DNA from: a virus
Lineage: Duplodnaviria; Heunggongvirae; Uroviricota; Caudoviricetes
Length of the DNA: 48,409 nt
Reading direction: 5' to 3' (one strand)
Virus record (IMG/VR): IMGVR_UViG_646564533_000016
Numbering within the stretch: position 1 is the first letter of the stretch; every line of letters starts with the position of its first letter. Shown piece by piece: positions 1 through 48,409 of this stretch. The position numbers and the translations under genes are program-made. The notes under the pieces were generated by a model. The model did not search any database. It worked only from the letters and a program-made list of their open reading frames with translations, and was not told the origin of the DNA.

Positions 1-90
1 TTGCCTCCCCCCCGTTGATGGGTAAAATAGCCGCAATTTTTCGTTTTCAACAAGCGCGGCGCGATGCCGCTTACTCAAGAAGAAAGAATT

Positions 91-165
91 ATGACGTTGT
101 CTCCTTATTTGCAAGAGGTGGCGAAGCGCCGCACTTTTGCCATTATTTCTCACCCCAATAATTAA
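91..165 (+). pseudogene. prfC: 5' fragment of host prfC (peptide chain release factor 3) interrupted by prophage insertion
   Basis: ATG at 91 translates [22 protein letters not shown], matching the PrfC N-terminus as I recall it, then diverges (NN-stop) at about 157 where AT-rich phage DNA starts. Confidence 0.6.
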
Positions 166-385
166 GCCCAAATAAAAGCTCTTTTACTCTTTCAAAATCC
201 TTTCAATTAATTGAGTGATAATCATATAACTCATTTAATAACATGATGTTATGTGATTTCTTTGATTGAAAATTCTTTCATGTAACTTTAAATTGATCAG
301 GTTGCTTTCATCAAAAATCTGTACATGTGATTGTACATAATGTACAAAACAGCAGAGGTTTTTTGTTATTTGTACAAGGTGAGTA

Positions 386-1609
386 ATGGCGCTGTCTGAT
401 GCGTGGTTGCGTTCAGTCGTTGGAAAGGAACGTGATAAGGTTTTGGTTAAATCCGATCGTGATGGTCTGTCTGTTAGAGTATCACCGAAAGGTCGCGTAG
501 TGTTCCAATATCGTTATCAGTGGGCGGGGAAAGGTGAGCGTCTTGATATCGGAACTTACCCAGCAACTGGACTAAAAGAGGCCAGAGAAGAAGTTATCCG
601 TCTTCGTGGTGAACTCGAGTCAAACCGCAATCCACGATTGGTCAAGCTGGCAGAAAAACGTAAAGCTACTGAAGCCATGACGGTAGAATCTGTGATCCGT
701 GCTTGGTATGAAGCATATTGTGTAAAAAATAAAAAAGGTTCTGAACAGATACTCCGCTCGTTTGAGCTGCACCTGTTCTCTAAAATCGGGAATATCCCTC
801 ACGATGCAGCTACATTGCATGATTGGTTAGAAGTCCTGGAGCCTCTTAGCACTAAGACTCCAGCAATAGCAGACCGATTGCTAATTAACGCAAAGCAGGC
901 CCATGTCTGGGCGTATAAGAGAAAGCTCATTGAAACTCGCCCGCTGTCGGATATCACGGGTAAAGATATGGATATCCGTAAAGGTCAGAAGAAACGGTTT
1001 CTGACACATGATGAAATTAAAATCCTTTATGCTGCGATCGATGGTTCTCGAATGGTTCCTAAATACCGGGCCTTCATTAAACTATTGCTGCATTTTGGTT
1101 GCCGTAGTTCAGAGCTAATTACTGCCAAGGTGGACGATTTTGATTTCATTAATAAAATATGGACTGTACCACCAGAACGACATAAGACAGGGGATATAAC
1201 AGGCGAACCGCTAAAGCGGCCCATTATTGAACCGGTTGAAGAGCTTATAAAATACGTTATCTCTATGAACAACGGTTCCGATATGCTTTTTACTAAGGAA
1301 GGAAGCAGGGAACCAGTTGGTCGGACATCATTGCAGTCGCTGCCTTACAATTTAATGCAGTACGCATGGCGGCGTTTGGGGTATCAATTTCCTCATTGGT
1401 CTCTTCATGATTTGAGACGAACTGCACGAACAAACTTTTCTGATCTTACTGCGCCTCATATTGCTGAAATAATGCTCGGTCATAAACTGCCAGGTGTATG
1501 GCAAGTTTATGACAAGAGTGATTATCTAGAAGAACAGCGTAAAGCCTACCAGGCATGGTGGGAGAGAGTTGAATCGATTGTTACTTGTACTCGTTCAGGC
1601 TCGAAATGA
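386..1609 (+). CDS. Tyrosine site-specific integrase, P4/IntS-like
   Basis: 407 aa; N-terminal arm-binding-type region (MALSDAWLRS...GLSVRVSPKGRVVFQYRY) and C-terminal catalytic region (HDLRRTART...); RBS AAGGTGAG before ATG; lies next to the host junction. Confidence 0.93.
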   Translation: MALSDAWLRSVVGKERDKVLVKSDRDGLSVRVSPKGRVVFQYRYQWAGKGERLDIGTYPATGLKEAREEVIRLRGELESNRNPRLVKLAEKRKATEAMTVESVIRAWYEAYCVKNKKGSEQILRSFELHLFSKIGNIPHDAATLHDWLEVLEPLSTKTPAIADRLLINAKQAHVWAYKRKLIETRPLSDITGKDMDIRKGQKKRFLTHDEIKILYAAIDGSRMVPKYRAFIKLLLHFGCRSSELITAKVDDFDFINKIWTVPPERHKTGDITGEPLKRPIIEPVEELIKYVISMNNGSDMLFTKEGSREPVGRTSLQSLPYNLMQYAWRRLGYQFPHWSLHDLRRTARTNFSDLTAPHIAEIMLGHKLPGVWQVYDKSDYLEEQRKAYQAWWERVESIVTCTRSGSK

Positions 1610-1791
1610 TATTTTGCGTAGCTAGAACGCAATCAAATCTAGCAGTCCGCTTTGTTCGGAGTTCGGACATTATGAGTTGGCAAGTAAAGTAGCTTGCTAG
1701 GAAGCCGGATTTGCACGGTCGGTATAATAAGATGTAACCCCTTGCCTTCATTTACTCGAATGAACGTGCACATTGGATAGGAGGAAAAGGA

Positions 1792-4700
1792 ATGCAATTC
1801 ATTACCAACGGCCCTGATATTCCTGATGAGCTTTTGCAGGCGCACGAGGAAGGGCGCGTTGTGTTCTTCTGTGGAGCAGGCATTTCCTACCCTGCTGGTT
1901 TACCTGGTTTCAAAGGGTTGGTAGAACTAATTTACCAGAGGAACGGAACAACACTTTCAGAAATTGAGCGTGAGGTTTTCGAGCGTGGGCAATTTGACGG
2001 CACATTAGATTTGCTGGAACGGCGCTTACCAGGGCAGCGTATAGCCGTCCGACGCGCGTTGGAAAAAGCCCTTAAGCCAAAGCTCCGTCGTAGGGGCGCT
2101 ATTGATACTCAGGCGGCGCTGTTACGTTTAGCCCGTAGCCGCGAGGGTGCCCTTCGATTGGTCACTACCAACTTTGACCGTCTCTTTCATGTGGCAGCTA
2201 AACGTACAGGCCAGGCTTTTCAGGCCTATGTAGCGCCGATGCTGCCAATTCCAAAAAACAGCCGCTGGGATGGACTTGTATACCTGCATGGGCTGTTACC
2301 GGAAAAGGCGGATGATACTGCCCTGAATCGTCTGGTTGTTACCAGCGGTGACTTTGGCTTGGCTTATCTCACTGAGCGTTGGGCAGCTCGCTTTGTGAGT
2401 GAGTTATTTCGTAACTATGTGGTCTGCTTCGTTGGCTACAGCATCAACGACCCGGTACTGCGCTACATGATGGATGCGCTTGCAGCAGATCGGAGGCTCG
2501 GTGAAGTCACACCACAAGTATGGGCACTGGGGGAGTGTGAGCCGGGGCAGGAGCACCGGAAAGCCATCGAGTGGGAGGCCAAAGGGGTCACTCCTATCCT
2601 TTACACCGTACCGGCGGGCTCCACTGATCATTCAGTGCTGCATCAAACGTTGCACGCTTGGGCAGATACTTATCGAGATGGTATACAGGGCAAAGAGGCT
2701 ATAGTCGTCAAACATGCTCTGGCCCGCCCGCAGGACAGCACTCGTCAGGACGATTTCGTTGGTCGGATGTTGTGGGCCTTGTCAGATAAATCAGGTTTAC
2801 CAGCAAAACGCTTTGCGGAACTCAATCCTGCTCCGCCGCTGGATTGGTTATTGAAAGCTTTCTCGGACGAACGATTTAAATACAGCGATCTGCCACGCTT
2901 TTGTGTATCTCCGCATGTCGAAATTGACCCGAAACTCCGATTCAGTCTGGTTCAGCGTCCTGCGCCCTATGAGCTGGCCCCGCAGATGTCGCTGGTTTCT
3001 GGATGTGTCAGTGCTAGCAAATGGGATGACGTAATGTCCCATATAGCCCGTTGGCTAGTTCGTTATCTGGGCGACCCTAGGTTGATCATATGGATTGCTG
3101 AACGCGGCGGACAAATACACGACCGTTGGATGTTTCTGATTGAGAGCGAACTAGATCGCTTAGCAGCACTGATGCGGGAGCGTAAGACTTCTGAGTTAGA
3201 TGAAATTCTCTTGCATTCCCCCCTGGCTATTCCTGGTCCACCTATGTCTACTTTATGGCGGCTTCTGCTTAGTGGTCGTGTGAAATCGCCATTGCAGAAC
3301 CTGGATTTGTATCGTTGGCAAAACCGCTTAAAGAATGAAGGCTTGACGACTACATTGCGCTTGGAGTTACGCGAGTTGCTTTCTCCCAAGGTTATGTTGA
3401 GGCGGCCGTTTCGCTATAGTGAAGACGATTCGAGCAGCACTGATGAACCCTTGCGAATCAAGCAATTGGTGGATTGGGAGCTGGTGCTGACTGCTGATTA
3501 CGTACGTTCAACCCTGTTCGACCTTGCTGACGAGTCATGGAAATCGTCCTTGCCATACCTGTTGGAAGATTTTCAGCAGTTGTTGCGTGATGCACTGGAC
3601 TTGTTGCGGGAGTTGGGAGAGTCCGACGATCGTCACGACCGCTCGCATTGGGATTTGCCGTCCATCGCTCCGCACTGGCAGAACCGGGGGTTCCGCGATT
3701 GGGTGAGCCTGATTGAATTACTTCGGGATTCATGGTTAGCCGTTCGAGCCAAAGACAGCGATCAGGCCACGCGCATTGCTCAGAATTGGTTTGAGTTGCC
3801 ATATCCCACCTTCAAACGTCTGGCACTGTTTGCCGCAAGCCAAGACAACTGCATACCACCTGAGCGGTGGGTTAATTGGTTGTTAGAGGACGGTTCATGG
3901 TGGTTGTGGGCCACGGATACTGGGCGAGAGGTATTCAGACTGTTTGTTTTGCAGGGACGACATCTGACAGGAATTGCACAAGAGCGTCTGGAAACTGCTA
4001 TCTTGGCAGGGCCTCCGCGCGAGATGTACGAGGATAATTTGGAAGCAGACAGGTGGCATTATTTGGTGGCTCATTCCGTCTGGTTGTGTCTAGCGAAGCT
4101 CAGGGGAGCGGGCCTTGTTTTGGGAGAGTCTGCGGCTACACGTTTGACGGAAATATCCACAGCATACCCAAAATGGCAACTGGCAACCAACGAGCGTGAT
4201 GAATTCTCTCACTGGATGAGCGGAACCGGTGATCCAGGCTTCGAGGAGAGTATAGATGTCGACATTGCGCCCCGTAAGTGGCAGGAATTAGTGCAATGGC
4301 TCGCAAAGCCTATGCCAGAAAGACTGCCTTTCTATGAGGACACTTGGAGTGATGTTTGCCGTACGCGCTTTTTTCACAGTCTGTATGCGTTACGTAAACT
4401 ATCACAAGATGATGTGTGGCCTGTTGGTCGGTGGCGTGAAGCTCTGCAGACTTGGGCTGAACCAGGGATGATTTTGCGTTCGTGGCGGTACGCCGCACCG
4501 TTGGTGCTTGACATGCCTGACGCAGTACTTCAGGAGATTTCCCTCGCTGTCACTTGGTGGATGGAGGAGGCTTCGAAGACCATCCTCTGCCACGAGGAGA
4601 TTCTACTGGCCCTTTGTCGTCGGGTTCTGATGATAGAAACAAGCCCAGAGTCTAGCACCATTCGAAACGGAATTGAGACCTATGATCCTGTTTCTACGGC

Positions 4701-5619
4701 GATCAATCATCCCATTGGGCATGTCACGCAATCACTGATCACCCTATGGTTCAAACAGAACCCGAATGACAATGATTTGCTTCCTGTTGAATTGAAAACA
4801 CTTTTCACCAAATTGTGTAATGTACAGATAGAGCTATTCCGCCATGGTCGGGTGTTGCTGGGGTCGCGGCTGATCGCATTTTTTCGCGTAGATCGACCTT
4901 GGACCGAACAGTATCTATTGCCCTTGTTTGCTTGGAGTAATCCCGTCGAAGCAAAAGCTGTGTGGGAAGGCTTCCTCTGGTCGCCACGCCTGTATGAACC
5001 GTTGCTGATAGCTTTCAAGTCAGATTTTTTGGAGAGCGCCAATCACTATTCTGATCTTGGCGAGCACCGGCAGCAATTCGCTACTTTCCTGACTTATGCA
5101 GCTCTGGGCCCTACCGAGGGATATACCGTGGAGGAGTTCCGAACGGCAATTAGTGCTCTTCCACAAGAAGGTCTGGAGGTAGCCGCGCAGGCGTTATACC
5201 AGGCACTTGAAGGTGCGGGCGATCAGCGCGAGGAGTATTGGAAAAATCGTGTCCAGCCATTTTGGCAACAGGTTTGGCCAAAGTCCCGCAACTTGGCCAC
5301 CCCACGCATATCCGAATCGTTGACTCGTATGGTGATTGCTGCCCGAGGTGAATTTCCGGCGGCTTTGGCAGTGGTGCAGGACTGGCTGCAACCGCTCGAA
5401 CACCTTAGCTACGACGTTCGCCTTTTGCTAAAATCAGATATTTGCAGCCGATATCCTGCGGACGCTCTATCCCTGCTGAATGCCGTGATTGCCGAACAAC
5501 ACTGGGGGCCTCGAGAGTTGGGGCAATGCTTGCTTCAAATTGTTCAAGCTGCTCCACAACTGGAGCAAGATGTTCGTTATCAGCGATTAAATGAATATTC
5601 TCGAAGGCGCAGCGTGTGA
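1792..5619 (+). CDS. Large SIR2-domain protein (SIR2_2-type N-terminal NADase domain plus ~950-aa helical W/L-rich C-terminal region); candidate defence-associated sirtuin (DSR-like) effector
   Basis: 1275 aa; strong RBS AGGAGG 8 nt before ATG; N-terminal motifs VVFFCGAGISYPAGLP, VTTNFDRL, VYLHG, VGYSINDP typical of the SIR2_2 family; no Walker A motif found; sits between int and xis. Confidence 0.85.
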   Translation: MQFITNGPDIPDELLQAHEEGRVVFFCGAGISYPAGLPGFKGLVELIYQRNGTTLSEIEREVFERGQFDGTLDLLERRLPGQRIAVRRALEKALKPKLRRRGAIDTQAALLRLARSREGALRLVTTNFDRLFHVAAKRTGQAFQAYVAPMLPIPKNSRWDGLVYLHGLLPEKADDTALNRLVVTSGDFGLAYLTERWAARFVSELFRNYVVCFVGYSINDPVLRYMMDALAADRRLGEVTPQVWALGECEPGQEHRKAIEWEAKGVTPILYTVPAGSTDHSVLHQTLHAWADTYRDGIQGKEAIVVKHALARPQDSTRQDDFVGRMLWALSDKSGLPAKRFAELNPAPPLDWLLKAFSDERFKYSDLPRFCVSPHVEIDPKLRFSLVQRPAPYELAPQMSLVSGCVSASKWDDVMSHIARWLVRYLGDPRLIIWIAERGGQIHDRWMFLIESELDRLAALMRERKTSELDEILLHSPLAIPGPPMSTLWRLLLSGRVKSPLQNLDLYRWQNRLKNEGLTTTLRLELRELLSPKVMLRRPFRYSEDDSSSTDEPLRIKQLVDWELVLTADYVRSTLFDLADESWKSSLPYLLEDFQQLLRDALDLLRELGESDDRHDRSHWDLPSIAPHWQNRGFRDWVSLIELLRDSWLAVRAKDSDQATRIAQNWFELPYPTFKRLALFAASQDNCIPPERWVNWLLEDGSWWLWATDTGREVFRLFVLQGRHLTGIAQERLETAILAGPPREMYEDNLEADRWHYLVAHSVWLCLAKLRGAGLVLGESAATRLTEISTAYPKWQLATNERDEFSHWMSGTGDPGFEESIDVDIAPRKWQELVQWLAKPMPERLPFYEDTWSDVCRTRFFHSLYALRKLSQDDVWPVGRWREALQTWAEPGMILRSWRYAAPLVLDMPDAVLQEISLAVTWWMEEASKTILCHEEILLALCRRVLMIETSPESSTIRNGIETYDPVSTAINHPIGHVTQSLITLWFKQNPNDNDLLPVELKTLFTKLCNVQIELFRHGRVLLGSRLIAFFRVDRPWTEQYLLPLFAWSNPVEAKAVWEGFLWSPRLYEPLLIAFKSDFLESANHYSDLGEHRQQFATFLTYAALGPTEGYTVEEFRTAISALPQEGLEVAAQALYQALEGAGDQREEYWKNRVQPFWQQVWPKSRNLATPRISESLTRMVIAARGEFPAALAVVQDWLQPLEHLSYDVRLLLKSDICSRYPADALSLLNAVIAEQHWGPRELGQCLLQIVQAAPQLEQDVRYQRLNEYSRRRSV

Positions 5620-5786: not shown

Positions 5787-5824
5787 TGATGGGTATTAGT
5801 TCTGATATGAGCTAATACCCATCA
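5787..5824. repeat. Perfect 13-bp inverted repeat (TGATGGGTATTAG / CTAATACCCATCA) with 12-nt loop, between the convergent SIR2 gene and xis
   Basis: Read directly; a second shorter inverted repeat (TGACACAG / CTGTGTCA) lies just upstream at about 5752..5784; neither is followed by a U-run. Confidence 0.6.
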
Positions 5825-6016
5825 CTCAATAACTCCAGCAAACCTGTATATCTTGCGTGATGCCCATTTATTTGGGCAGGATTTAATATCAGGATCTGGA
5901 AAGTCAGGCCTGTATTTCTGGCCAGTTCTCCTGTTTACGCTGTTCCAGCGAAGAACGGTCGATACTGAAACGCCACAGAAGTCGGCGACTTGTTTAGTTG
6001 TCATTAAGTTGTTCAT
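5822..6016 (-). CDS. AlpA/Xis-family excisionase or DNA-binding regulator (HTH)
   Basis: 64 aa; TTKQVADFCGVSVSTVLRW...FPDPD pattern typical of AlpA/Vis/Xis partners of P4-type integrases; strong SD AGGAGGTGA; ATG overlaps stop of upstream gene (TAATG). Confidence 0.7.
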   Translation of the reverse strand: MNNLMTTKQVADFCGVSVSTVLRWNSVNRRTGQKYRPDFPDPDIKSCPNKWASRKIYRFAGVIE

Positions 6017-17219: not shown

Positions 17220-17510
17220 TGCTTTAAATAGGGTAATAGAGATGTTGAATCTCATTACGGGATTCATGTTAGTTTACTTATTATTTATCGGGTGACTTTG
17301 TTTTTTGCCTGATGTTTAAAATGTTTTCTTCCAGTACAATGTCCATAGATACAATGAGTCTGCTTATTACATTATTAGCAGAGCTATTAAGGTCAAAGTA
17401 CAGCATAAGCTTTTAAAGCCAATCAACCAGTCATCAAGACAGACGGGTTTATTCATGAAAACTCTCCATGTTTGATTCGATGGGGCTTGAAGTTAAAGCT
17501 TTAATATAGC

Positions 17511-17723
17511 TCATGAAAGGTAAACATTGGCAGCTGATGGTCCACGCAGACCATTTATCCGGCAAAATTCCACGCGTAATCCGGTGGTAATTTCTTCTGC
17601 ATCGCGGAGATTGAGCGCTGAAACATGAAGCTGGACATCGATACGACCATCGGATGGGGTTATAAGACCTTTGCCGCTTTTGCCGTCAAAGGTTTTGAGA
17701 ATTCCTGTCATTTTACGGGACAA
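17511..17723 (-). CDS. cspF: Cold-shock-like protein, CspF/CspH type
   Basis: 70 aa; MSRKMTGI(L/V)[18 protein letters not shown]...[13 protein letters not shown]. Confidence 0.85.
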
Positions 17724-18023
17724 AAAAATTCCTTAATACTGATAACTTGGCGCACTATACACACGTTCCTGAAGAAAGCTATAGTTTTTTGATGGGGTTG
17801 AAGATGGCTGGATGTCTAAAATAAACATTGCTTCATATGTTCAACTATGCGTTAATGATTGCGTCGGTTTGAAGAACAGACGATATACGAAGTAGTTTAC
17901 TAAAGCAGTTCTCATTTCAGGTGTTATTCACTTATTCCTTCTTTGAGTCTCTCCAATTAAGTACGAAGTCGTTTCTGTTATACAAGCCATTTATGCCGAA
18001 AGGCTCAAGTTAAGGAATGTAGA

Positions 18024-18239
18024 ATGTCAAATAAAATGACTGGTTTAGTAAAATGGTTTAACGCTGATAAAGGTTTTGGCTTTATTTCTCCTGTTGATGG
18101 TAGTAAAGATGTGTTTGTGCATTTTTCTGCGATTCAGAATGATAATTATCGAACCTTATTTGAAGGTCAAAAGGTTACCTTCTCTGTAGAGAGTGGTGCT
18201 AAAGGTCCTGCAGCAGCAAATGTCATAATTACTGATTAA
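18024..18239 (+). CDS. cspB: Cold-shock protein CspB-like
   Basis: 71 aa; [38 protein letters not shown]; divergent from the cspF-like gene. Confidence 0.9.
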
Positions 18240-18520
18240 AATTCATAGTTTGTCTGTATACGATAACGAAGAAGGCTGATGCCTGAGTGGAGATACAGAC
18301 AGAGTGGTGAATATTGGATCTCTTTAATAAAGAGTAAGGAGGTCCAATACATGAAACAATGGCCAGCATATTTGGCAATAACTTAATCAGGAAAAGTATG
18401 CTAACCATTGTGGTGAAGTGCAGGTTTGCTGCATGAATAGTTTTACAGCAGAAGCTAACTGCTGGCATAGCAAAACAAAGTGCGTAAGTGGATGACTCCC
18501 ACAAAAAGTACCACAATATT

Positions 18521-18546
18521 AAACCCGCTCAGGCGGGTTTTTTATT
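18521..18546 (+). terminator. Intrinsic terminator downstream of the cspB-like gene
   Basis: ACCCGC-TCAG-GCGGGT hairpin plus T-run. Confidence 0.75.
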
Positions 18547-18602
18547 ATCTGCTTTAAATATGTTATTAAAATATAAAAAATACTTGTTACGAATAAAATC
18601 AA

Positions 18603-18773
18603 TCAAGCTACAGCTTTAAGATTTGTCTGGAATACTTTGTTGCAATGAGGGCAGATCAAAAGGGCACCTTTTTGTACTCTTGAAAAACTGTGTTCTGACT
18701 CTTGGGTGCAGTTTGGGCAGGAACATTTAACGAGATAATTACGGCGTGATTTTGAGTCTTTACGTTCTGACAT
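18603..18773 (-). CDS. Small zinc-ribbon protein (two CxxC pairs)
   Basis: ATG at 18773 (MSERKDSKSRRNYLVKCSCPNCTQ...CPHCNK) with SD AGGAAA; 56 aa. Confidence 0.55.
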   Translation of the reverse strand: MSERKDSKSRRNYLVKCSCPNCTQESEHSFSRVQKGALLICPHCNKVFQTNLKAVA

Positions 18774-18991
18774 AGGCTTTTCCTGTATAAATGGCCGTAT
18801 ACAGTACACTAAATATGAAAACATATCTCGTATTATTATTTAATATATGATTTTCTTTTAAAATAATTACCCACATTTTTAATGTGTCTGTTTTTTAGCG
18901 CCGTTGAGAACAACGTTTGCTATAAAAACTACCCCATAGACTCCGATCTTTTCAAACATATTGCACCATCTGTGTACATCGGGGTGAGGAT

Positions 18992-19207
18992 ATGAAATCA
19001 ATGGATAAGTTAACAACAGGTATCGCCTATGGCACATCGGCTGGTAATGCTGGTTTCTGGGCATTGCAGTTACTCGATAAAGTAACTCCGTCACAGTGGG
19101 CTGCAATCGGTGTGCTGGGTAGTCTGGTATTTGGCTTGCTGACGTACCTGACAAACCTTTATTTCAAGATTAAAGAAGACAAGCGTAAGGTTGCACGGGG
19201 AGAGTAA
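18992..19207 (+). CDS. Class II holin (phage-21 S21-type pinholin) with dual-start motif
   Basis: 71 aa; MKSMDK... with Met1/Met4 dual start; two TMDs ([17 protein letters not shown] and [18 protein letters not shown]). Confidence 0.9.
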
Positions 19208-19211
19208 TTCA

Positions 19212-19556
19212 ATGACACAAAACTATGAACTGATTGTGAAAGGGATCCGCAATTTTGAGAATAAAGTTGCGGTAACTGTAGCATTAAGGGACAAAAAACG
19301 CTTTGACGGTGAAATTTTTGACCTGGACATCTCGCTGGACCGTGTTGAAGGTGCCGCGCTGGAGTTTTATGAGGCAGCAGCCAGAAGGAGCATCAGACAG
19401 GTCTTCCTGGAAGTTGCAGCCGGGTTATGTGAAGGGGATGAGCAGTCGCCGGAAAAGCGCCCCGTAATTTTAGAGGCGCAGAATGTGTGGATAACCTACA
19501 AAGGAAAGCTACCAGGAAGAATTACTGATTCTCTGAAGACTCCACCGAAATGGTAA
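19212..19556 (+). CDS. Hypothetical protein in the lysis cassette
   Basis: ATG at 19212 (MTQNYELIVKG...) preceded by GGGGAGAG; 114 aa. Confidence 0.6.
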   Translation: MTQNYELIVKGIRNFENKVAVTVALRDKKRFDGEIFDLDISLDRVEGAALEFYEAAARRSIRQVFLEVAAGLCEGDEQSPEKRPVILEAQNVWITYKGKLPGRITDSLKTPPKW

Positions 19557-19794
19557 TTTTACCAGCATATTTTTCTTCCAGTAATGCCGCCAGCCACTTG
19601 AAAGAATTTTGTTGTTCCTGGGACCATTTGGGGTTGCGTGATTCAAGCAGGAGCGATGCCAGTGTTGGTTGCATTTGTTCTCTGGGAATTGATAAGGCCA
19701 AATATGAAAATGCAACAGTGAGGGCATTTACATCATCCCGAAGCTTTGAAATGCAGTCGAGCAACTCCTGTAGAGAAATGGTGTTATTGTCCAT
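19522..19794 (-). CDS. Hypothetical protein, opposite strand to the lysis genes
   Basis: 90-aa ORF with protein-like composition filling the gap between the holin-adjacent gene and the endolysin. Confidence 0.35.
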   Translation of the reverse strand: MDNNTISLQELLDCISKLRDDVNALTVAFSYLALSIPREQMQPTLASLLLESRNPKWSQEQQNSFKWLAALLEEKYAGKITISVESSENQ

Positions 19795-19899
19795 AAATAA
19801 TCCTCTTGATTGTCTTTACCTTTTCCCCGCCTGATTCAACAGGCCGGGACAGATAAACATATCCAGGGTTCAGAAACCGATAAATCCTGATAAATATCC

Positions 19900-20921
<1,022 letters not shown>

Positions 20922-21286
20922 ATGTAGATTAACATTAAATCGGATTATTTTTAGCGCTGAATGTGAAATTTAAATAAAAAGGACTCTTCCATGAGTCAAA
21001 ATCCTTGAAATCTTAAGGGTAAGATAAAAGGTCATTAGACAGAATGACACGTTTTATTAATAAATAAAGCTATTGTTTCATTCGTGTGTTTTTCTTTACA
21101 AAAGTAATCCTTGCTATGGTTGGTTAATCATGCGTTAATGGTGTTCTGGTTTGTTACAAAATTATCTGAAGCAGTCATTGTTATAATTTTATTATTTGTA
21201 CCTCTTGAGATTTCCTTGTTGGTTTTTCTCTCTGATATTTTTTTCGGACCATTCTGCCCAAGGGCTCACTTCTTCAAAAGGTAATA

Positions 21287-21502
21287 ATGATGTCTAACAA
21301 AATGACTGGTTTAGTGAAATGGTTTAACCCTGAAAAAGGTTTTGGTTTCATCACGCCGAAAGATGGTAGCAAAGATGTGTTTGTCCATTTCTCAGCTATT
21401 CAGAGCAACGATTTCAAAACGTTAACTGAGAATCAGCAAGTCGAATTTGGTATTGAGAACGGACCTAAAGGCCCCGCGGCTGTTCATGTAGTGGCACTTT
21501 GA
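21287..21502 (+). CDS. cspI: Cold-shock protein CspI-like
   Basis: [49 protein letters not shown]. Confidence 0.9.
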
Positions 21503-21710
21503 GGTAGAAAATATTACAAACCATATTCACTTTAGATGCCCGTGTTGCCATGGTTCTCAGTATAGAACATCATCTTTTGATGTTTCTGACAGGAATCCTT
21601 TCGGGGCAAAATGTATCTTTTGTAAATCAATGATGATTACATTTGATAATATTTCACAATACTTAAATGTTAGCCGTCTGTCGTTAGATTTAAGAAAGTG
21701 AAAATGAAGG

Positions 21711-21731
21711 CTCCTTCGGGAGCTTTTTTGC
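21711..21731 (+). terminator. Intrinsic terminator
   Basis: GCTCC-TTCG-GGAGC hairpin followed by TTTTTT. Confidence 0.6.
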
Positions 21732-21773
21732 TTAGTGTCTAGTCGATGGATACTCACATATTACGGTAACATC

Positions 21774-22004
21774 ATGAAAAAAATAATAGTTTTTTTTAAC
21801 TCTGAACCAGCAATGGTAGTGCCAGTGATGACCGGAGTTAACACCATCATGCGTGAATATCCAAATGGCGAAACAACACATCTCACTGTAATGGCTGCAG
21901 GGTTTCCATCTCTGACCGGAGATCATAAAGTCATTTATGTAGCAGCGGATCGACATGTAACTTCAGAAGAAATTCTGGAAGCAGCAATGAGACTCTTGAA
22001 TTGA
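21774..22004 (+). CDS. Hypothetical moron protein
   Basis: ATG at 21774 (MKKIIVFFNSEPAMVVPV...); no clear RBS. Confidence 0.45.
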   Translation: MKKIIVFFNSEPAMVVPVMTGVNTIMREYPNGETTHLTVMAAGFPSLTGDHKVIYVAADRHVTSEEILEAAMRLLN

Positions 22005-22176
22005 TTTCATTCTAATGCCTTGATAATAAAGGATAATCATCTTTATCTGTTTGTGCGAAATTTAGACTGTCGTATGTTGATTATTGCGATGTTTCATCTT
22101 ATCTTTTATACGTTTGCTCCATATAATTGACACTACTGTGTACCAGGAAAGTCATAACAGACTAAAAGAGGAAATG

Positions 22177-22350
22177 ATGAACATTGAAGAGTTAAAAACA
22201 AAAACAGAAGCAGATATTTCTGAATATATAACAAAAAAAATTATTGAGCTTAAGAAAAAGACCGGGAAAGAAGTTACCAGTATCCAGTTTACTGCACGGG
22301 AAAAAATGACTGGTCTTGAAAGCTATGATATCAAGATTGATTTAATCTAG
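22177..22350 (+). CDS. gnsB: GnsA/GnsB-family protein
   Basis: MNIEELKTKTEADISEYITKKIIELKKKTGKEVTSIQFTAREKMTGLESYDIKIDLI; SD AAAGAGGA. Confidence 0.8.
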   Translation: MNIEELKTKTEADISEYITKKIIELKKKTGKEVTSIQFTAREKMTGLESYDIKIDLI

Positions 22351-22645
22351 TGTGTTTATAGTATTAGCATCAATTTCTTATCAGATGCTATTCAACAATA
22401 CAATTTACCCATAAACCTCGTTTTTACGGGGTTTTGTTATATTTAAACATTACCGAATAGATATAAATCTCGATAGTCGGTGGTATTGGTTGTGTGACAA
22501 TACCTAGTCTTTCCGGTATGCCTGGAGAGAATACAAACGACAGATTATGTAAGGGAAACGCGCTGAAACTTTCACACTTTCATGCTGAGTGATTTGACGT
22601 TATATTTTTAGCCGCAAGTGAAGAGCAAACGCATGGAGCGACAAA

Positions 22646-43694: not shown

Positions 43695-43705
43695 GTGGGG
43701 TGAAT

Positions 43706-46534
43706 ATGGCAGTAAAGATTTCAGGTGTACTGAAAGACGGTGCAGGTAAACCGGTACAGAACTGCACAATCCAGCTGAAAGCAAAACGTAACAGCACCAC
43801 GGTGGTGGTGAACACGGTGGCATCTGAAAATCCGGATGAAGCAGGGCGTTACAGCATGGACGTTGAGCACGGCCAGTACAGCGTTATTCTGTTGGTGGAG
43901 GGATTCCCGCCGTCACATGCCGGGACCATCACCGTGTATGAAGATTCTCAACCCGGTACGCTGAATGATTTTCTCGGTGCCATGACGGAGGATGATGCCC
44001 GTCCGGAGGCACTGCGCCGTTTTGAACTGATGGTGGAAGAGGTGGCGCGTAACGCGTCCGCAGTGGCACAGGACACGGCAGCCGCGAAGAAGTCAGCCAG
44101 CGATGCCGGCACATCAGCCCGTGAGGCGGCAACCCATGCGACTGATGCTGCAGGCTCAGCACGCGCAGCCAGCACGTCAGCCGGACAGGCCGCGTCGTCG
44201 GCTCAGTCAGCGTCTTCCAGCGCAGGAACGGCATCAGCAAAGGCCACTGAAGCATCAAAAAGTGCTGCCGCTGCAGAGTCCTCAAAAAGCGCGGCGGCTA
44301 CCAGTGCCGGTGCGGCGAAAACGTCAGAAACGAATGCGGCAGCGTCACAACAATCAGCAGCCACTTCTGCATCCACCGCGACCACGAAAGCGTCAGAAGC
44401 AGCCACTTCAGCACGGGATGCGTCGGCTTCAAAAGAGGCAGCGAAATCATCAGAAACGAACGCATCCTCGAGCGCCAGTAGTTCCGCTTCCTCGGCAACG
44501 GCGGCAGCAAATTCCGCGAAGGCGGCAAAAACGTCCGAGACGAACGCCAGGTCTTCTGAAACGGCAGCGGGACAGAGTGCCTCAGCTGCGGCAGGCTCAA
44601 AAACAGCGGCTGCATCATCTGCCAGTGCCGCGTCAACAAGTGCCGGGCAGGCCTCAGCCAGTGCCACCGCCGCCGGAAAATCGGCAGAAAGTGCTGCATC
44701 GTCTGCTTCAACAGCCACAACGAATGCTGGCGAAGCCGCTGTACAGGCCAGCGCAGCAGCGAGGTCTGCTTCCGCAGCGAAGACATCCGAGACGAACGCG
44801 AAAGCGTCGGAAACCAGCGCAGAATCCTCAAAAACGGCTGCCGCATCGTCCGCCAGTTCGGCGGCGTCATCGGCATCATCTGCGTCTGCTTCAAAAGATG
44901 AGGCGACCAGACAGGCGTCAGCAGCAAAGGGCAGCGCCACGACGGCATCCACGAAGGCGACAGAGGCAGCTGGCAGTGCGACGGCGGCAGCTCAGAGCAA
45001 AAGTACGGCGGAATCCGCGGCAACGCGCGCCGAGACAGCGGCAAAACGGGCAGAGGATATTGCATCCGCCGTGGCGCTTGAGGATGCGAGCACGACGAAA
45101 AAGGGGATAGTACAGCTCAGCAGTGCGACTAACAGCACTTCCGAGTCACTGGCGGCAACGCCAAAAGCCGTTAAGGCCGCGTATGACCTGGCTAGCGGGA
45201 AATATACCGCTCAGGACGCTACGACAGCACAAAAAGGAATTGTCCAGCTCAGTAGTGCAACCAACAGCGCATCTGAAACGCTTGCTGCGACACCGAAAGC
45301 AGTGAAAGCAGCTAATGACAATGCGAATGGTCGGGTACCTTCTGCCCGTAAGGTGAATGGTAAGGCGCTTTCAGCGGATATAACACTGACACCGAAAGAT
45401 ATTGGTACGCTTAACTCAACAACTATGTCATTTAGCGGTGGTGCTGGTTGGTTCAAATTAGCAACGGTAACCATGCCGCAGGCGAGTTCTGTTGTTTCAA
45501 TTACGTTGATTGGTGGGGCTGGATATAACGTCGGTTCACCTCAACAGGCAGGTATATCTGAACTTGTTTTGCGTGCAGGTAATGGTAACCCGAAGGGGAT
45601 TACTGGTGCTTTATGGCAGCGCACTTCGGCAGGGTTTACAAATTTTGCCTGGGTCAATACATCTGGTGATACTTACGATATTTACGTTGCAATCGGAAAT
45701 TATGCGACTGGTGTAAATATTCAATGGGATTATACCAGTAATGCCAGCGTGACGATTCATACGTCACCAGCATATTCTGCTAATAAGCCGGAAGGGTTAA
45801 CGGACGGTACAGTTTATTCACTCTATACGCCATCAGAGCAGTTTTATCCGCCTGGCGCACCAATCCCGTGGCCATCGGATACCGTTCCGTCTGGTTATGC
45901 CCTGATGCAGGGGCAGACTTTTGACAAATCTGCCTACCCGAAACTTGCAGTCGCTTATCCGTCAGGCGTGATCCCTGATATGCGTGGCTGGACGATTAAG
46001 GGCAAGCCCGCCAGTGGTCGTACCGTATTGTCTCAGGAACAGGACGGCATTAAATCGCACACCCACAGCGCCAGCGCATCCAGTACGGATTTGGGTACGA
46101 AAACCACATCGTCGTTTGATTACGGCACTAAATCCACGAATAACACCGGGGCGCATACGCACAGTCTGAGCGGCTCTACAAGCTCGGCCGGAGCACACTC
46201 GCACGTTGATGGTCGCAGGTTTAATACAAGCACTTTTAAAGACACCTATCAGTATGGTTCTACAGCTGTCGGAAGTAACTCATACCAGGTACAAGGGGCG
46301 GTTGGTCTGGGCATTGGCACGATGGCGAATACGAACTCTGCTGGCGCGCATACCCACTCACTGTCCGGCACTGCTGCAAGCGCAGGTGCACACGCACATA
46401 CTGTCGGTATTGGTGCTCATACGCACTCCGTTGCGATTGGCTCACATGGACACACCATCACCGTTAACGCTGCTGGTAACGCGGAAAACACCGTCAAAAA
46501 CATCGCATTTAACTATATTGTGAGGCTTGCATAA
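43706..46534 (+). CDS. stf: Side tail fibre protein Stf (full length) with Ala/Ser-rich repeat shaft and His-rich C-terminal motifs
   Basis: [38 protein letters not shown]... matches lambda Stf; KTSETNA repeats; AHTHSLSG motifs. Confidence 0.93.
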
Positions 46535-47109
46535 TGGCATTCAGAATGAGTGAACAAGCACGGACCATAAAAATTTATAATCTGCTGGCCGGAACTAATG
46601 AATTTATTGGTGAAGGTGACGCATATATTCCGCCTCATACAGGTCTGCCAGCAAACAGTACCGATATTGCACCGCCAGATATTCCGGCTGGCTTCGTGGC
46701 TGTTTTCAACAGTGATGAGTCATCGTGGCATCTCGTTGAAGATCATCGGGGTAAAACGGTTTATGACGTGGCTTCCGGCGATGCGTTATTTATTTCTGAA
46801 CTCGGTCCGTTACCGGAAAATGTTACCTGGTTATCGCCGGAAGGGGAGTTTCAGAAGTGGAACGGCACAGCCTGGGTGAAGGATACGGAAGCAGAAAAAC
46901 TGTTCCGGATCCGGGAGGCGGAAGAAACAAAAAACAACCTGATGCAGGTAGCCAGTGAGCATATTGCGCCGCTTCAGGATGCTGCAGATCTGGAAATTGC
47001 AACGGAGGAAGAAATCTCGTTGCTGGAAGCATGGAAAAAGTATCGGGTATTGCTGAACCGTGTTGATACGTCAACTGCACAGGATATTGAATGGCCAGCA
47101 CTGCCGTAG
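46534..47109 (+). CDS. tfa: Tail fibre assembly protein Tfa
   Basis: 191 aa; TAATG overlap with stf; lambda tfa position. Confidence 0.9.
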
Positions 47110-47206
47110 GGTAAAACATATAAATTCTATAATTAGATGTATCTTTCCATTTACGGCAAGGAAGGGGGCTTGGAAGACGTAAAGCATCTCACACCGAGAT
47201 TATTTT

Positions 47207-47797
47207 TTATATGTCAGGTGTCTGAAGTTTTGCTTTGGCTCTTAAAATGGTTTGCCGCGAGGTTTTGAATTCCCGGGCAATGGCACTTATACTTACACCT
47301 GACTTAATTCGTTCGAATACCACCTGTTTCTGTTCTTCATTTAACACAGGTGGTCGACCAAAACGTTTCCCTGCGCCGCGGGCTCTTACTATCCCGGAAT
47401 GAGTGCGTTCAAGTAAAAGGTCTCGTTCAAATTCAGCGACTGCTGAAATTACTTGCATCATCATTTTTCCTGTTGGACTGGTCAGGTCAATGCCCCCCAA
47501 TGCTAAGCAATGCACTCTGATACCTGTTTCGGTCAGTTGTTCCACTGTTTTCCTGATATCCATTGCATTACAACCAAGGCGATCCAGTTTTGTCACAATC
47601 AATTGATCACCACATTTCAGGCGAGCAAGCAACCGGTTAAAACCAGGACGCTCACTGGTTGCTGCTGAGCCGCTAATGTGTTCTTCGATTATTTGCTGAG
47701 GTTTGATTTTAAAACCTGCACTTTCGATTTCCCGGCGTTGATTTTCGGTGGTCTGATCCAGCGTTGATATCCGACAGTAAGCAAAAATTCGAGACAT
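47207..47797 (-). CDS. pin: Serine recombinase / DNA invertase, Pin (Hin/Gin) family
   Basis: [20 protein letters not shown] (catalytic Ser region) and C-terminal HTH ([19 protein letters not shown]). Confidence 0.92.
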
Positions 47798-48175
47798 AGT
47801 GAGACTCTATACGAAATTGGTGTACATATCATAATGCATATCCAAAAATTATTTCGCTTATTATTGTACATATTTGTATGTATACGTTCGAAAATAAACG
47901 AATTCGGATGCAGTCCCGTAATTTTGGTGTAACCAAAAATCGATTTTTTGAAAAATGGCTTTAACTCGGTTTGTTTTTCGAACTCCGGGCGGACTCGAGG
48001 AAGACGAATAATAGTGTTGTATGTTATTTCAACCAGATTTTAAGTTGTTTGGTCGTGGAAAAGTGGAGCAAAATGTTGTTAAAGTGGAAAAATGGTAAAA
48101 AAAGTATGTTGTTGCGGAATAACGTAGTTGTTGATATTTTTTTAATGCATTGAAAAATTATTTTTCAGGGGGGTA

Positions 48176-48409
48176 TTACACTTTACCATTTAAATTTTGG
48201 TTGTCTTTAAGAACTGATATCGCTGTTTGTAATAATTCTTTGTTATCCAGCCATGACTTTTTCTTTATGTTTCCTTCAATGTAATCAAGCAATGTTCTGG
48301 TATTGATAGGTCTTCCCTGTTTTGCTACTTCCACGACAGCATCTCCCAGGATAATTCTGACTTCAGGAAGCTGCGCAGGGAACCACTTTAGGGTGTCTTT
48401 TGATTTCAT
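48176..48409 (-). CDS. ydfK: YdfK/YnaE-family cold-shock-inducible prophage protein
   Basis: MKSKDTLKWFPAQLPEVRIILGDAVVEVAKQGRPINTRTLLDYIEGNIKK...; start codon is the last three bases of the window. Confidence 0.85.
   Translation of the reverse strand: MKSKDTLKWFPAQLPEVRIILGDAVVEVAKQGRPINTRTLLDYIEGNIKKKSWLDNKELLQTAISVLKDNQNLNGKV

Follow-up and report, generated by a model that had tools for sequence, protein, structure and literature searches.

Probable site-specific integration of a lambdoid prophage in prfC through an attachment site that would supply a replacement gene start

Results

Organization of the locus and its left junction

The window analysed here is the whole 48,409-nucleotide stretch of the viral record IMGVR_UViG_646564533_000016. 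It opens in host DNA, enters the start of prfC and then, past a short attachment core, passes into a prophage with an integrase gene close to the junction (Table 1). The first-pass annotation, made from the sequence alone, had read positions 91 to 156 as the first 22 residues of PrfC, followed by a frame break, a stop and AT-rich phage DNA, had placed the left junction near 157, and had proposed comparison with an uninfected strain. Escherichia coli K-12 MG1655 provides such an empty site between yjjG and prfC (locus L003), and its alignment with the window confirms that reading. Positions 1-155, from the yjjG stop codon to prfC codon 22, are 100% identical to K-12, the 90-nt non-coding yjjG-prfC spacer included; base 156 is the first to differ (CAATAATTAA in the window, GGACGCCGGT in K-12). 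Translation of 91-156 gives PrfC residues 1-22, after which come Asn, Asn and a TAA stop codon at 163-165; GC content is 49% in 1-155 versus 27% in 156-385. The 14-bp core ATTATTTCTCACCC, at 142-155, is the crossover interval: a C/A difference between host and phage at position 141 limits the crossover on the left and the divergence at 156 limits it on the right, so that the position first proposed for the junction was right to within a few bases. In the near-identical prophage of strain PAR, NCBI annotates the stub as a partial CDS, "missing C-terminus".

That the 22-residue match is a coincidence or an assembly artefact is an explanation to which we give practically no weight. All 155 of 155 bases are those of K-12, including a 90-nt spacer that codes for nothing, and 698 complete genomes, independent of one another, have the same junction; the identity and the recurrence together refute a chance or artefactual origin of the match.

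Table 1. Features of the window, with positions, strand and the evidence for each.
Feature	Position	Strand	Evidence
Host yjjG-prfC spacer and native prfC upstream region, including the ribosome-binding region	1..90	+	100% identity to K-12
Candidate native prfC promoter, TTGCCT-16-TAAAAT	1-28	+	Consensus match only
Truncated host prfC stub: codons 1-22, two phage-encoded Asn codons, TAA	91..165	+	Translation; K-12 alignment
Attachment core ATTATTTCTCACCC, attL copy	142..155		Sole stretch identical in attB, attL, attR and attP
Lambdoid prophage body, running off the window	156..48409		Gene content from the PAR annotation
Phage P′ arm, AT-rich spacer with four TGTACA (320, 332, 341, 371)	156..385	+	GC 27%
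Tyrosine integrase (int), 407 aa, SXT/cdtI prfC-targeting cluster	386..1609	+	Pfam Arm-DNA-bind_3, Phage_int_M and Phage_integrase
Cargo gene dsr1, defence-associated sirtuin, 1275 aa, between int and xis	1792..5619	+	Full-length PADLOC Dsr1, 2730 bits; Pfam SIR2_2; PGAP name in PAR
Excisionase candidate, 64 aa, without annotation in PAR	5822..6016	-	PHROG 1553 "excisionase", E 7.7e-36

The prophage body

The window itself ends before attR, and strain PAR was used as a proxy for the right junction; among the complete E. coli genomes none had an exact match to the right end of the window. The two prophages are 100% identical at the left end (first 1.7 kb of the window), 99.72% identical over 1-45324 and 95.9% identical over 45840-48409, with a different sequence in between. 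As read from the PAR annotation, the gene set comprises int, early-left genes, cI/cro-like repressors, replication genes, Q and lysis genes, together with genes for terminase, portal, protease, capsid, tail, J, Lom, tail fibre, tfa and a pin-like invertase. The early region (5600-30000) resembles the viable phages 2H10, mEp460 and PhiR63_1. Both the PAR annotation and the similarity to these three phages show the gene order of a lambdoid phage and a long-tail module of the lambda kind, and the full lambdoid gene set in the PAR counterpart bears out the earlier description of the DNA beyond the junction as a lambdoid prophage.

Several features of the body deserve mention in their own right. 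The excisionase candidate also gives weak HTH_17/MerR Pfam matches. Between int and xis, phages cdtI and Ayreon have other large ORFs of 710-729 aa where the window has Dsr1, and judged from these sequences the gap looks like a variable slot for cargo or defence genes. A Pin-like serine invertase gene (Resolvase and HTH_7 domains; 47207-47797, minus strand) adjoins the tail-fibre and tail-fibre-assembly genes (43700-47109, plus strand), and the segment that differs between the window and PAR, 45325-45839, is precisely a tail-fibre segment. An active invertible tail-fibre segment is doubtful, as only weak inverted repeats are found there beside the pin-like gene. Cold-shock-family genes lie at about 17,300-22,400 and at 48,176-48,409 (cspF, cspB, cspI, ymcF-like, ynfN, gnsB and ydfK), a set also seen in the Qin prophage of K-12; the window ends exactly at the start codon of ydfK.

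The right junction and the phage attachment site

In PAR, a further 1.1 kb or so, with ynaM-like and dinI-like genes, separates the position of the window's right end from attR, which is followed by prfC; the whole PAR prophage measures 49,636 bp. A second copy of the core, in direct repeat, occupies L002 6458-6471 of PAR. Across this core, 21 replacement codons supplied by the phage are in frame with the rest of prfC. The hybrid gene starts with ATGACAAGCCTTTTGGCCGCAGAGGTAGCGAAAAGAAGAACCTTTGCAATTATTTCTCACCC, then GGACGCC, and encodes a PrfC of 528 aa that is identical to K-12 PrfC at 521 of 521 residues from Glu9 onward. The first-pass annotation had anticipated each of these points, namely a right junction outside the window, a core repeated in direct orientation and joined in frame to what remains of prfC, and replacement 5′ codons taken from the phage attP; the first two are found in PAR, whose prophage is 99.7% identical, and the third in the free phage genomes described below. 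By analogy, the window's own attR would read ATGACAAGCCTTTTGGCCGCAGAGGTAGCGAAAAGAAGAACCTTTGCAATTATTTCTCACCC fused to GGACGCCGGTAAG of prfC. Written out by origin, attB is host-core-host, attL host-core-phage, attR phage-core-host and attP phage-core-phage, and the four sites fit a reciprocal exchange exactly.

We rebuilt attP by joining the P arm of PAR (L002 6000-6471) to the P′ arm of the window (156-800), which gave 1,117 nt. The rebuilt site has a single contiguous match over its full length in the genome of phage cdtI (NC_009514; 97.5% identity) and another over the full 1,117 nt in phage 2H10 (96.6%), and in phage Ayreon 78% of it is matched at 95.6%, with the core spanned. The prfC mimic of the P arm is therefore joined to the P′ arm in free phages, contiguously in cdtI and 2H10 and over part of the site in Ayreon. 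The cdtI attP reads CAATTATGACAAGCC...TTTGCAATTATTTCTCACCCCAATAATTAAGCCC, with the prfC look-alike start directly joined to the int-proximal arm. The same dinI-attP-int arrangement can be read in p13P484A-1 (NZ_CP019281.1), a circular molecule of 33,754 bp deposited as a plasmid, which is probably an excised or defective phage circle. This molecule also has neighbouring genes for a reverse transcriptase and a TIR-domain protein, which together resemble a retron defence pair. In the Stx2c phage record LC727881 the same 14 bp are annotated as "duplication due to insertion", and the Stx1a record is annotated likewise; insertion in the prfC 5′ coding region at the core ATTATTTCTCACCC is thus common to the window and to phages of the cdtI, Stx1a and Stx2c types.

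These comparisons also bear on whether the left end belongs to the rest of the prophage. The int and dsr1 genes are on the strand opposite to the neighbouring early-left genes, and prfC arrays do exist elsewhere (some E. coli have two attL-type places, and a Rheinheimera contig has two integrases), as one would expect if int and dsr1 formed a separate small island in tandem with an unrelated prophage. Against such an island, no second core and no second copy of the prfC mimic occur in the window when up to three mismatches are allowed, which places attR outside the window, leaves no internal tandem junction and indicates one element running off the right end. Moreover, an excisionase candidate lies just past dsr1, the free phages cdtI, 2H10 and Ayreon share attP-int followed by one large cargo ORF, and the region 5600-30000 matches viable phages, 2H10 among them. 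We therefore regard a tandem island as highly improbable.

The integrase and the attachment-site arms

The window integrase is identical to that of phage cdtI at 398 of 404 positions (99%). Its N-terminal part matches DUF4102/Arm-DNA-bind_3 (PF13356, E 9e-16, residues 3-87), as in integrases of the SXT cluster, and its catalytic part matches PF00589, with the R-K-H-R-H-Y residues R240, K267, H341, R344, H366 and Y375 invariant in an alignment of 12 sequences. It also shares with the IntSXT subgroup the 5′ end of prfC as target. We assign it to the SXT cluster because cdtI and IntSXT have been published as clustering together (PMC8138268) and because of its 99% identity to the cdtI integrase.

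The hexamer TGTACA occurs eight times in the 511 nt of the two arms, four times in each, versus eight times in the rest of the window (~48 kb). The P′-arm cluster spans 320-376 and the P-arm cluster, beyond the window, spans L002 6275-6389 of PAR. A TGTACA cluster also lies upstream of int in a Salmonella relative (L011, 85% identity) and in a Shewanella relative (L008, 51%). Judged by this distribution, the repeats are probably arm-type sites, bound by the Arm-DNA-bind_3 domain of the integrase.

The int gene has the same orientation as prfC, and a scan of 156..385 for terminators found none on the plus strand between the stub and int. For both reasons, transcription from the native prfC promoter may continue into int in the lysogen.

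Frequency in E. coli and breadth of the integrase family

A count over complete E. coli genomes gave 698 of 5,426 with the attL-type junction, scored where at least 80% of window positions 1-1700 were covered, and again 698 of 5,426 with the attR-type junction. For a broader view, we used an alignment of integrase relatives to scan the representative genomes of GTDB and took the 80 best loci. At 36 of these 80, int is preceded at a distance of 125-235 nt by a co-directional prfC 5′ stub ending in FAIISHP, and the stub-associated relatives extend down to about 43% identity. Their hosts include Pantoea, Xenorhabdus, Serratia, Pseudomonas, Marinobacterium, Burkholderiaceae, Methylomonas, Methylobacter, Acinetobacter, Rheinheimera, Cellvibrionaceae, Salinicola and others. 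The spacing and co-directionality of stub and int are thus a conserved geometry, seen in 36 loci of many genera. The Salmonella and Shewanella relatives, which are additional to the 36, have the same arrangement of stub and int.

At the other 44 of the 80 best loci, no prfC stub was found within 1.5 kb on either strand, and these relatives presumably use other attachment sites. Stub-less relatives with 43-52% identity (among L030-L093) were seen in Xenorhabdus, Photorhabdus, Morganella, Enterobacter, Kluyvera and some Acinetobacter. On one Rheinheimera MAG contig (CAYTIQ010000001.1; L060 and L061), two related integrases lie about 49 kb apart, each after a different prfC start. The order of these pieces is consistent with two tandem elements, in which the second stub would be the replacement start brought by the first element.

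Proposed mechanism and the fate of prfC

We conclude, with a probability of roughly 0.93, that the window holds most of a lambdoid phage of about 49.6 kb that integrated in prfC by site-specific recombination through its tyrosine integrase, and that its attP carries a replacement gene start. In the proposed mechanism, attP would recombine with the attB core ATTATTTCTCACCC, which lies within prfC codons 18-22, where the conserved P-loop motif AIISHPDAGKT begins. Just upstream of the core, attP brings a look-alike of the prfC start, consisting of a ribosome-binding-like region, an ATG and 21 codons. The attL product, seen in the window, is a dead 24-codon stub behind the native promoter. The attR product, as read in PAR, is an in-frame prfC with its first seven residues encoded by the phage (MTSLLAA replacing MTLSPYLQ) and the remainder unchanged. 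The hybrid gene would then be transcribed from a promoter in the P arm and would yield active RF3.

The phage copy of the gene start shows signs of constraint. From Glu9 to Ala17, the phage and host copies differ at eight nucleotides in six codons, two CGC-to-AGA arginine codons among them, and every one of the eight is silent. When eight substitutions were placed at random 200,000 times, no placement was silent throughout. The phage-encoded peptide has accordingly probably been under purifying selection; the alternative is an ancestral capture of the prfC start of another host. The phage copy also retains the sequence around the ATG, AATTATGAC, and, upstream of it, a stretch rich in purines.

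A simple sigma-70 consensus scan of the 220 nt that separate the dinI-like gene from the hybrid ATG in PAR returned no promoter on the plus strand. The best candidate by eye, CATAAT at 17-22 nt upstream of the hybrid ATG, has a poor -35 region and is not claimed as a promoter. The dinI-like gene (L002 5942-6252 of PAR, about 0.6-0.9 kb past the end of the window) is the last prophage gene before attR, and its promoter region has two LexA-box-like sites of the form CTGT-N8-ACAG, 150-210 nt upstream of the hybrid prfC ATG.

The result of the promoter scan would be expected if prfC were simply knocked out, that is, if the in-frame fusion, lacking the native promoter and ribosome-binding site, were not expressed and lysogens were RF3-deficient, a loss that would be tolerated because prfC is non-essential. 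Two published statements also lean this way: Ogura et al. 2007 (PMC2323221) state that transcription and translation of the hybrid are unknown, and Bobay et al. 2013 (PMC3603311) count prfC among the genes "disrupted" by prophages and describe one hotspot gene whose 3′ end is duplicated and whose ORF length is unchanged. The retained ATG context and purine-rich stretch speak against a knock-out, as does the preservation of the exact 14-residue peptide through eight silent changes. Furthermore, the arrangement is conserved over many genera and occurs in some 13% of complete E. coli genomes, where the sampled rows give prfC as intact, and SXT reportedly supplies a promoter at the same prfC site. 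Weighing these points, we consider a plain knock-out distinctly unlikely and prefer a hybrid prfC that would be expressed from the phage arm.

If so, integration might amount to a reciprocal promoter swap, in which the host prfC promoter would drive Int constitutively and a promoter in the phage arm would set RF3 in about 13% of E. coli, so that Int occupancy or the SOS response could come to bear on stop-codon fidelity. Such coupling is conceivable because the putative promoter would be surrounded by the candidate arm sites of Int and would be no more than about 210 nt from the two LexA boxes of the divergent dinI-like gene. We offer this as a tentative idea that is rather unlikely to hold. 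Were it true, the level of RF3 in those strains would be set by a phage, and int would be under the control of the host prfC promoter.

Discussion

Both the attachment site in prfC and the replacement of the 5′ end of the gene by attP are already known, for prfC phages as well as for SXT. The junction in the window is a correct re-identification of a published site and strategy; as such it is ordinary and carries little weight as a discovery. The first-pass annotation had named prfC as a reported integration site of lambdoid and Stx phages, and the literature agrees. Ogura et al. [quoted passage not shown] Smyshlyaev et al. 2021 (PMC8138268) placed the integrases of the cdtI phage and SXT in one cluster, all inserting at prfC.

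The practical value lies elsewhere. The junction is common (698/5,426), and automatic pipelines as well as at least one survey call prfC "disrupted" despite the rebuilt ORF. Since the ORF is rebuilt at attR, the label is an over-simplification.

Among known phages, the window prophage is most fully matched by cdtI, with which it shares attP, the 14-bp core, the phage-borne prfC start, the order attP-int-cargo and a 99% identical integrase. It shares attP (96.6%) and the core with 2H10, and with Ayreon it shares attP over 78% of its length together with the attP-int-cargo order. The Stx1a and Stx2c phages of O103:H2 and CC119 STEC have the same core and are, like it, long-tailed lambdoid phages at prfC. 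Its cargo differs from that of all these phages: the window prophage carries dsr1 downstream of int and has no stx or cdt genes annotated, and its early and late regions form a different mosaic from those of cdtI, 2H10, Ayreon and the Stx phages.

The likeness extends to elements of other kinds. In the SXT/R391 ICEs (Hochhut and Waldor 1999), the 5′ end of prfC is reportedly likewise replaced by attP, and their integrase is of the same SXT cluster. They differ from the window prophage in being conjugative elements of about 100 kb in which expression of int depends on SetCD (PMC4344509). The dusA-specific integrative elements, for example IMEVchUSA3, differ from it in target gene, integrase lineage and element type. 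The hotspot gene with a duplicated 3′ end is one that we take to be icd, the target of phage 21 and e14. In these icd prophages, attP also copies the displaced end of the gene and the ORF stays intact. There, however, it is the 3′ end that is exchanged, and the host promoter and translation start are kept, whereas at prfC the 5′ end is replaced together with the promoter and the ribosome-binding site.
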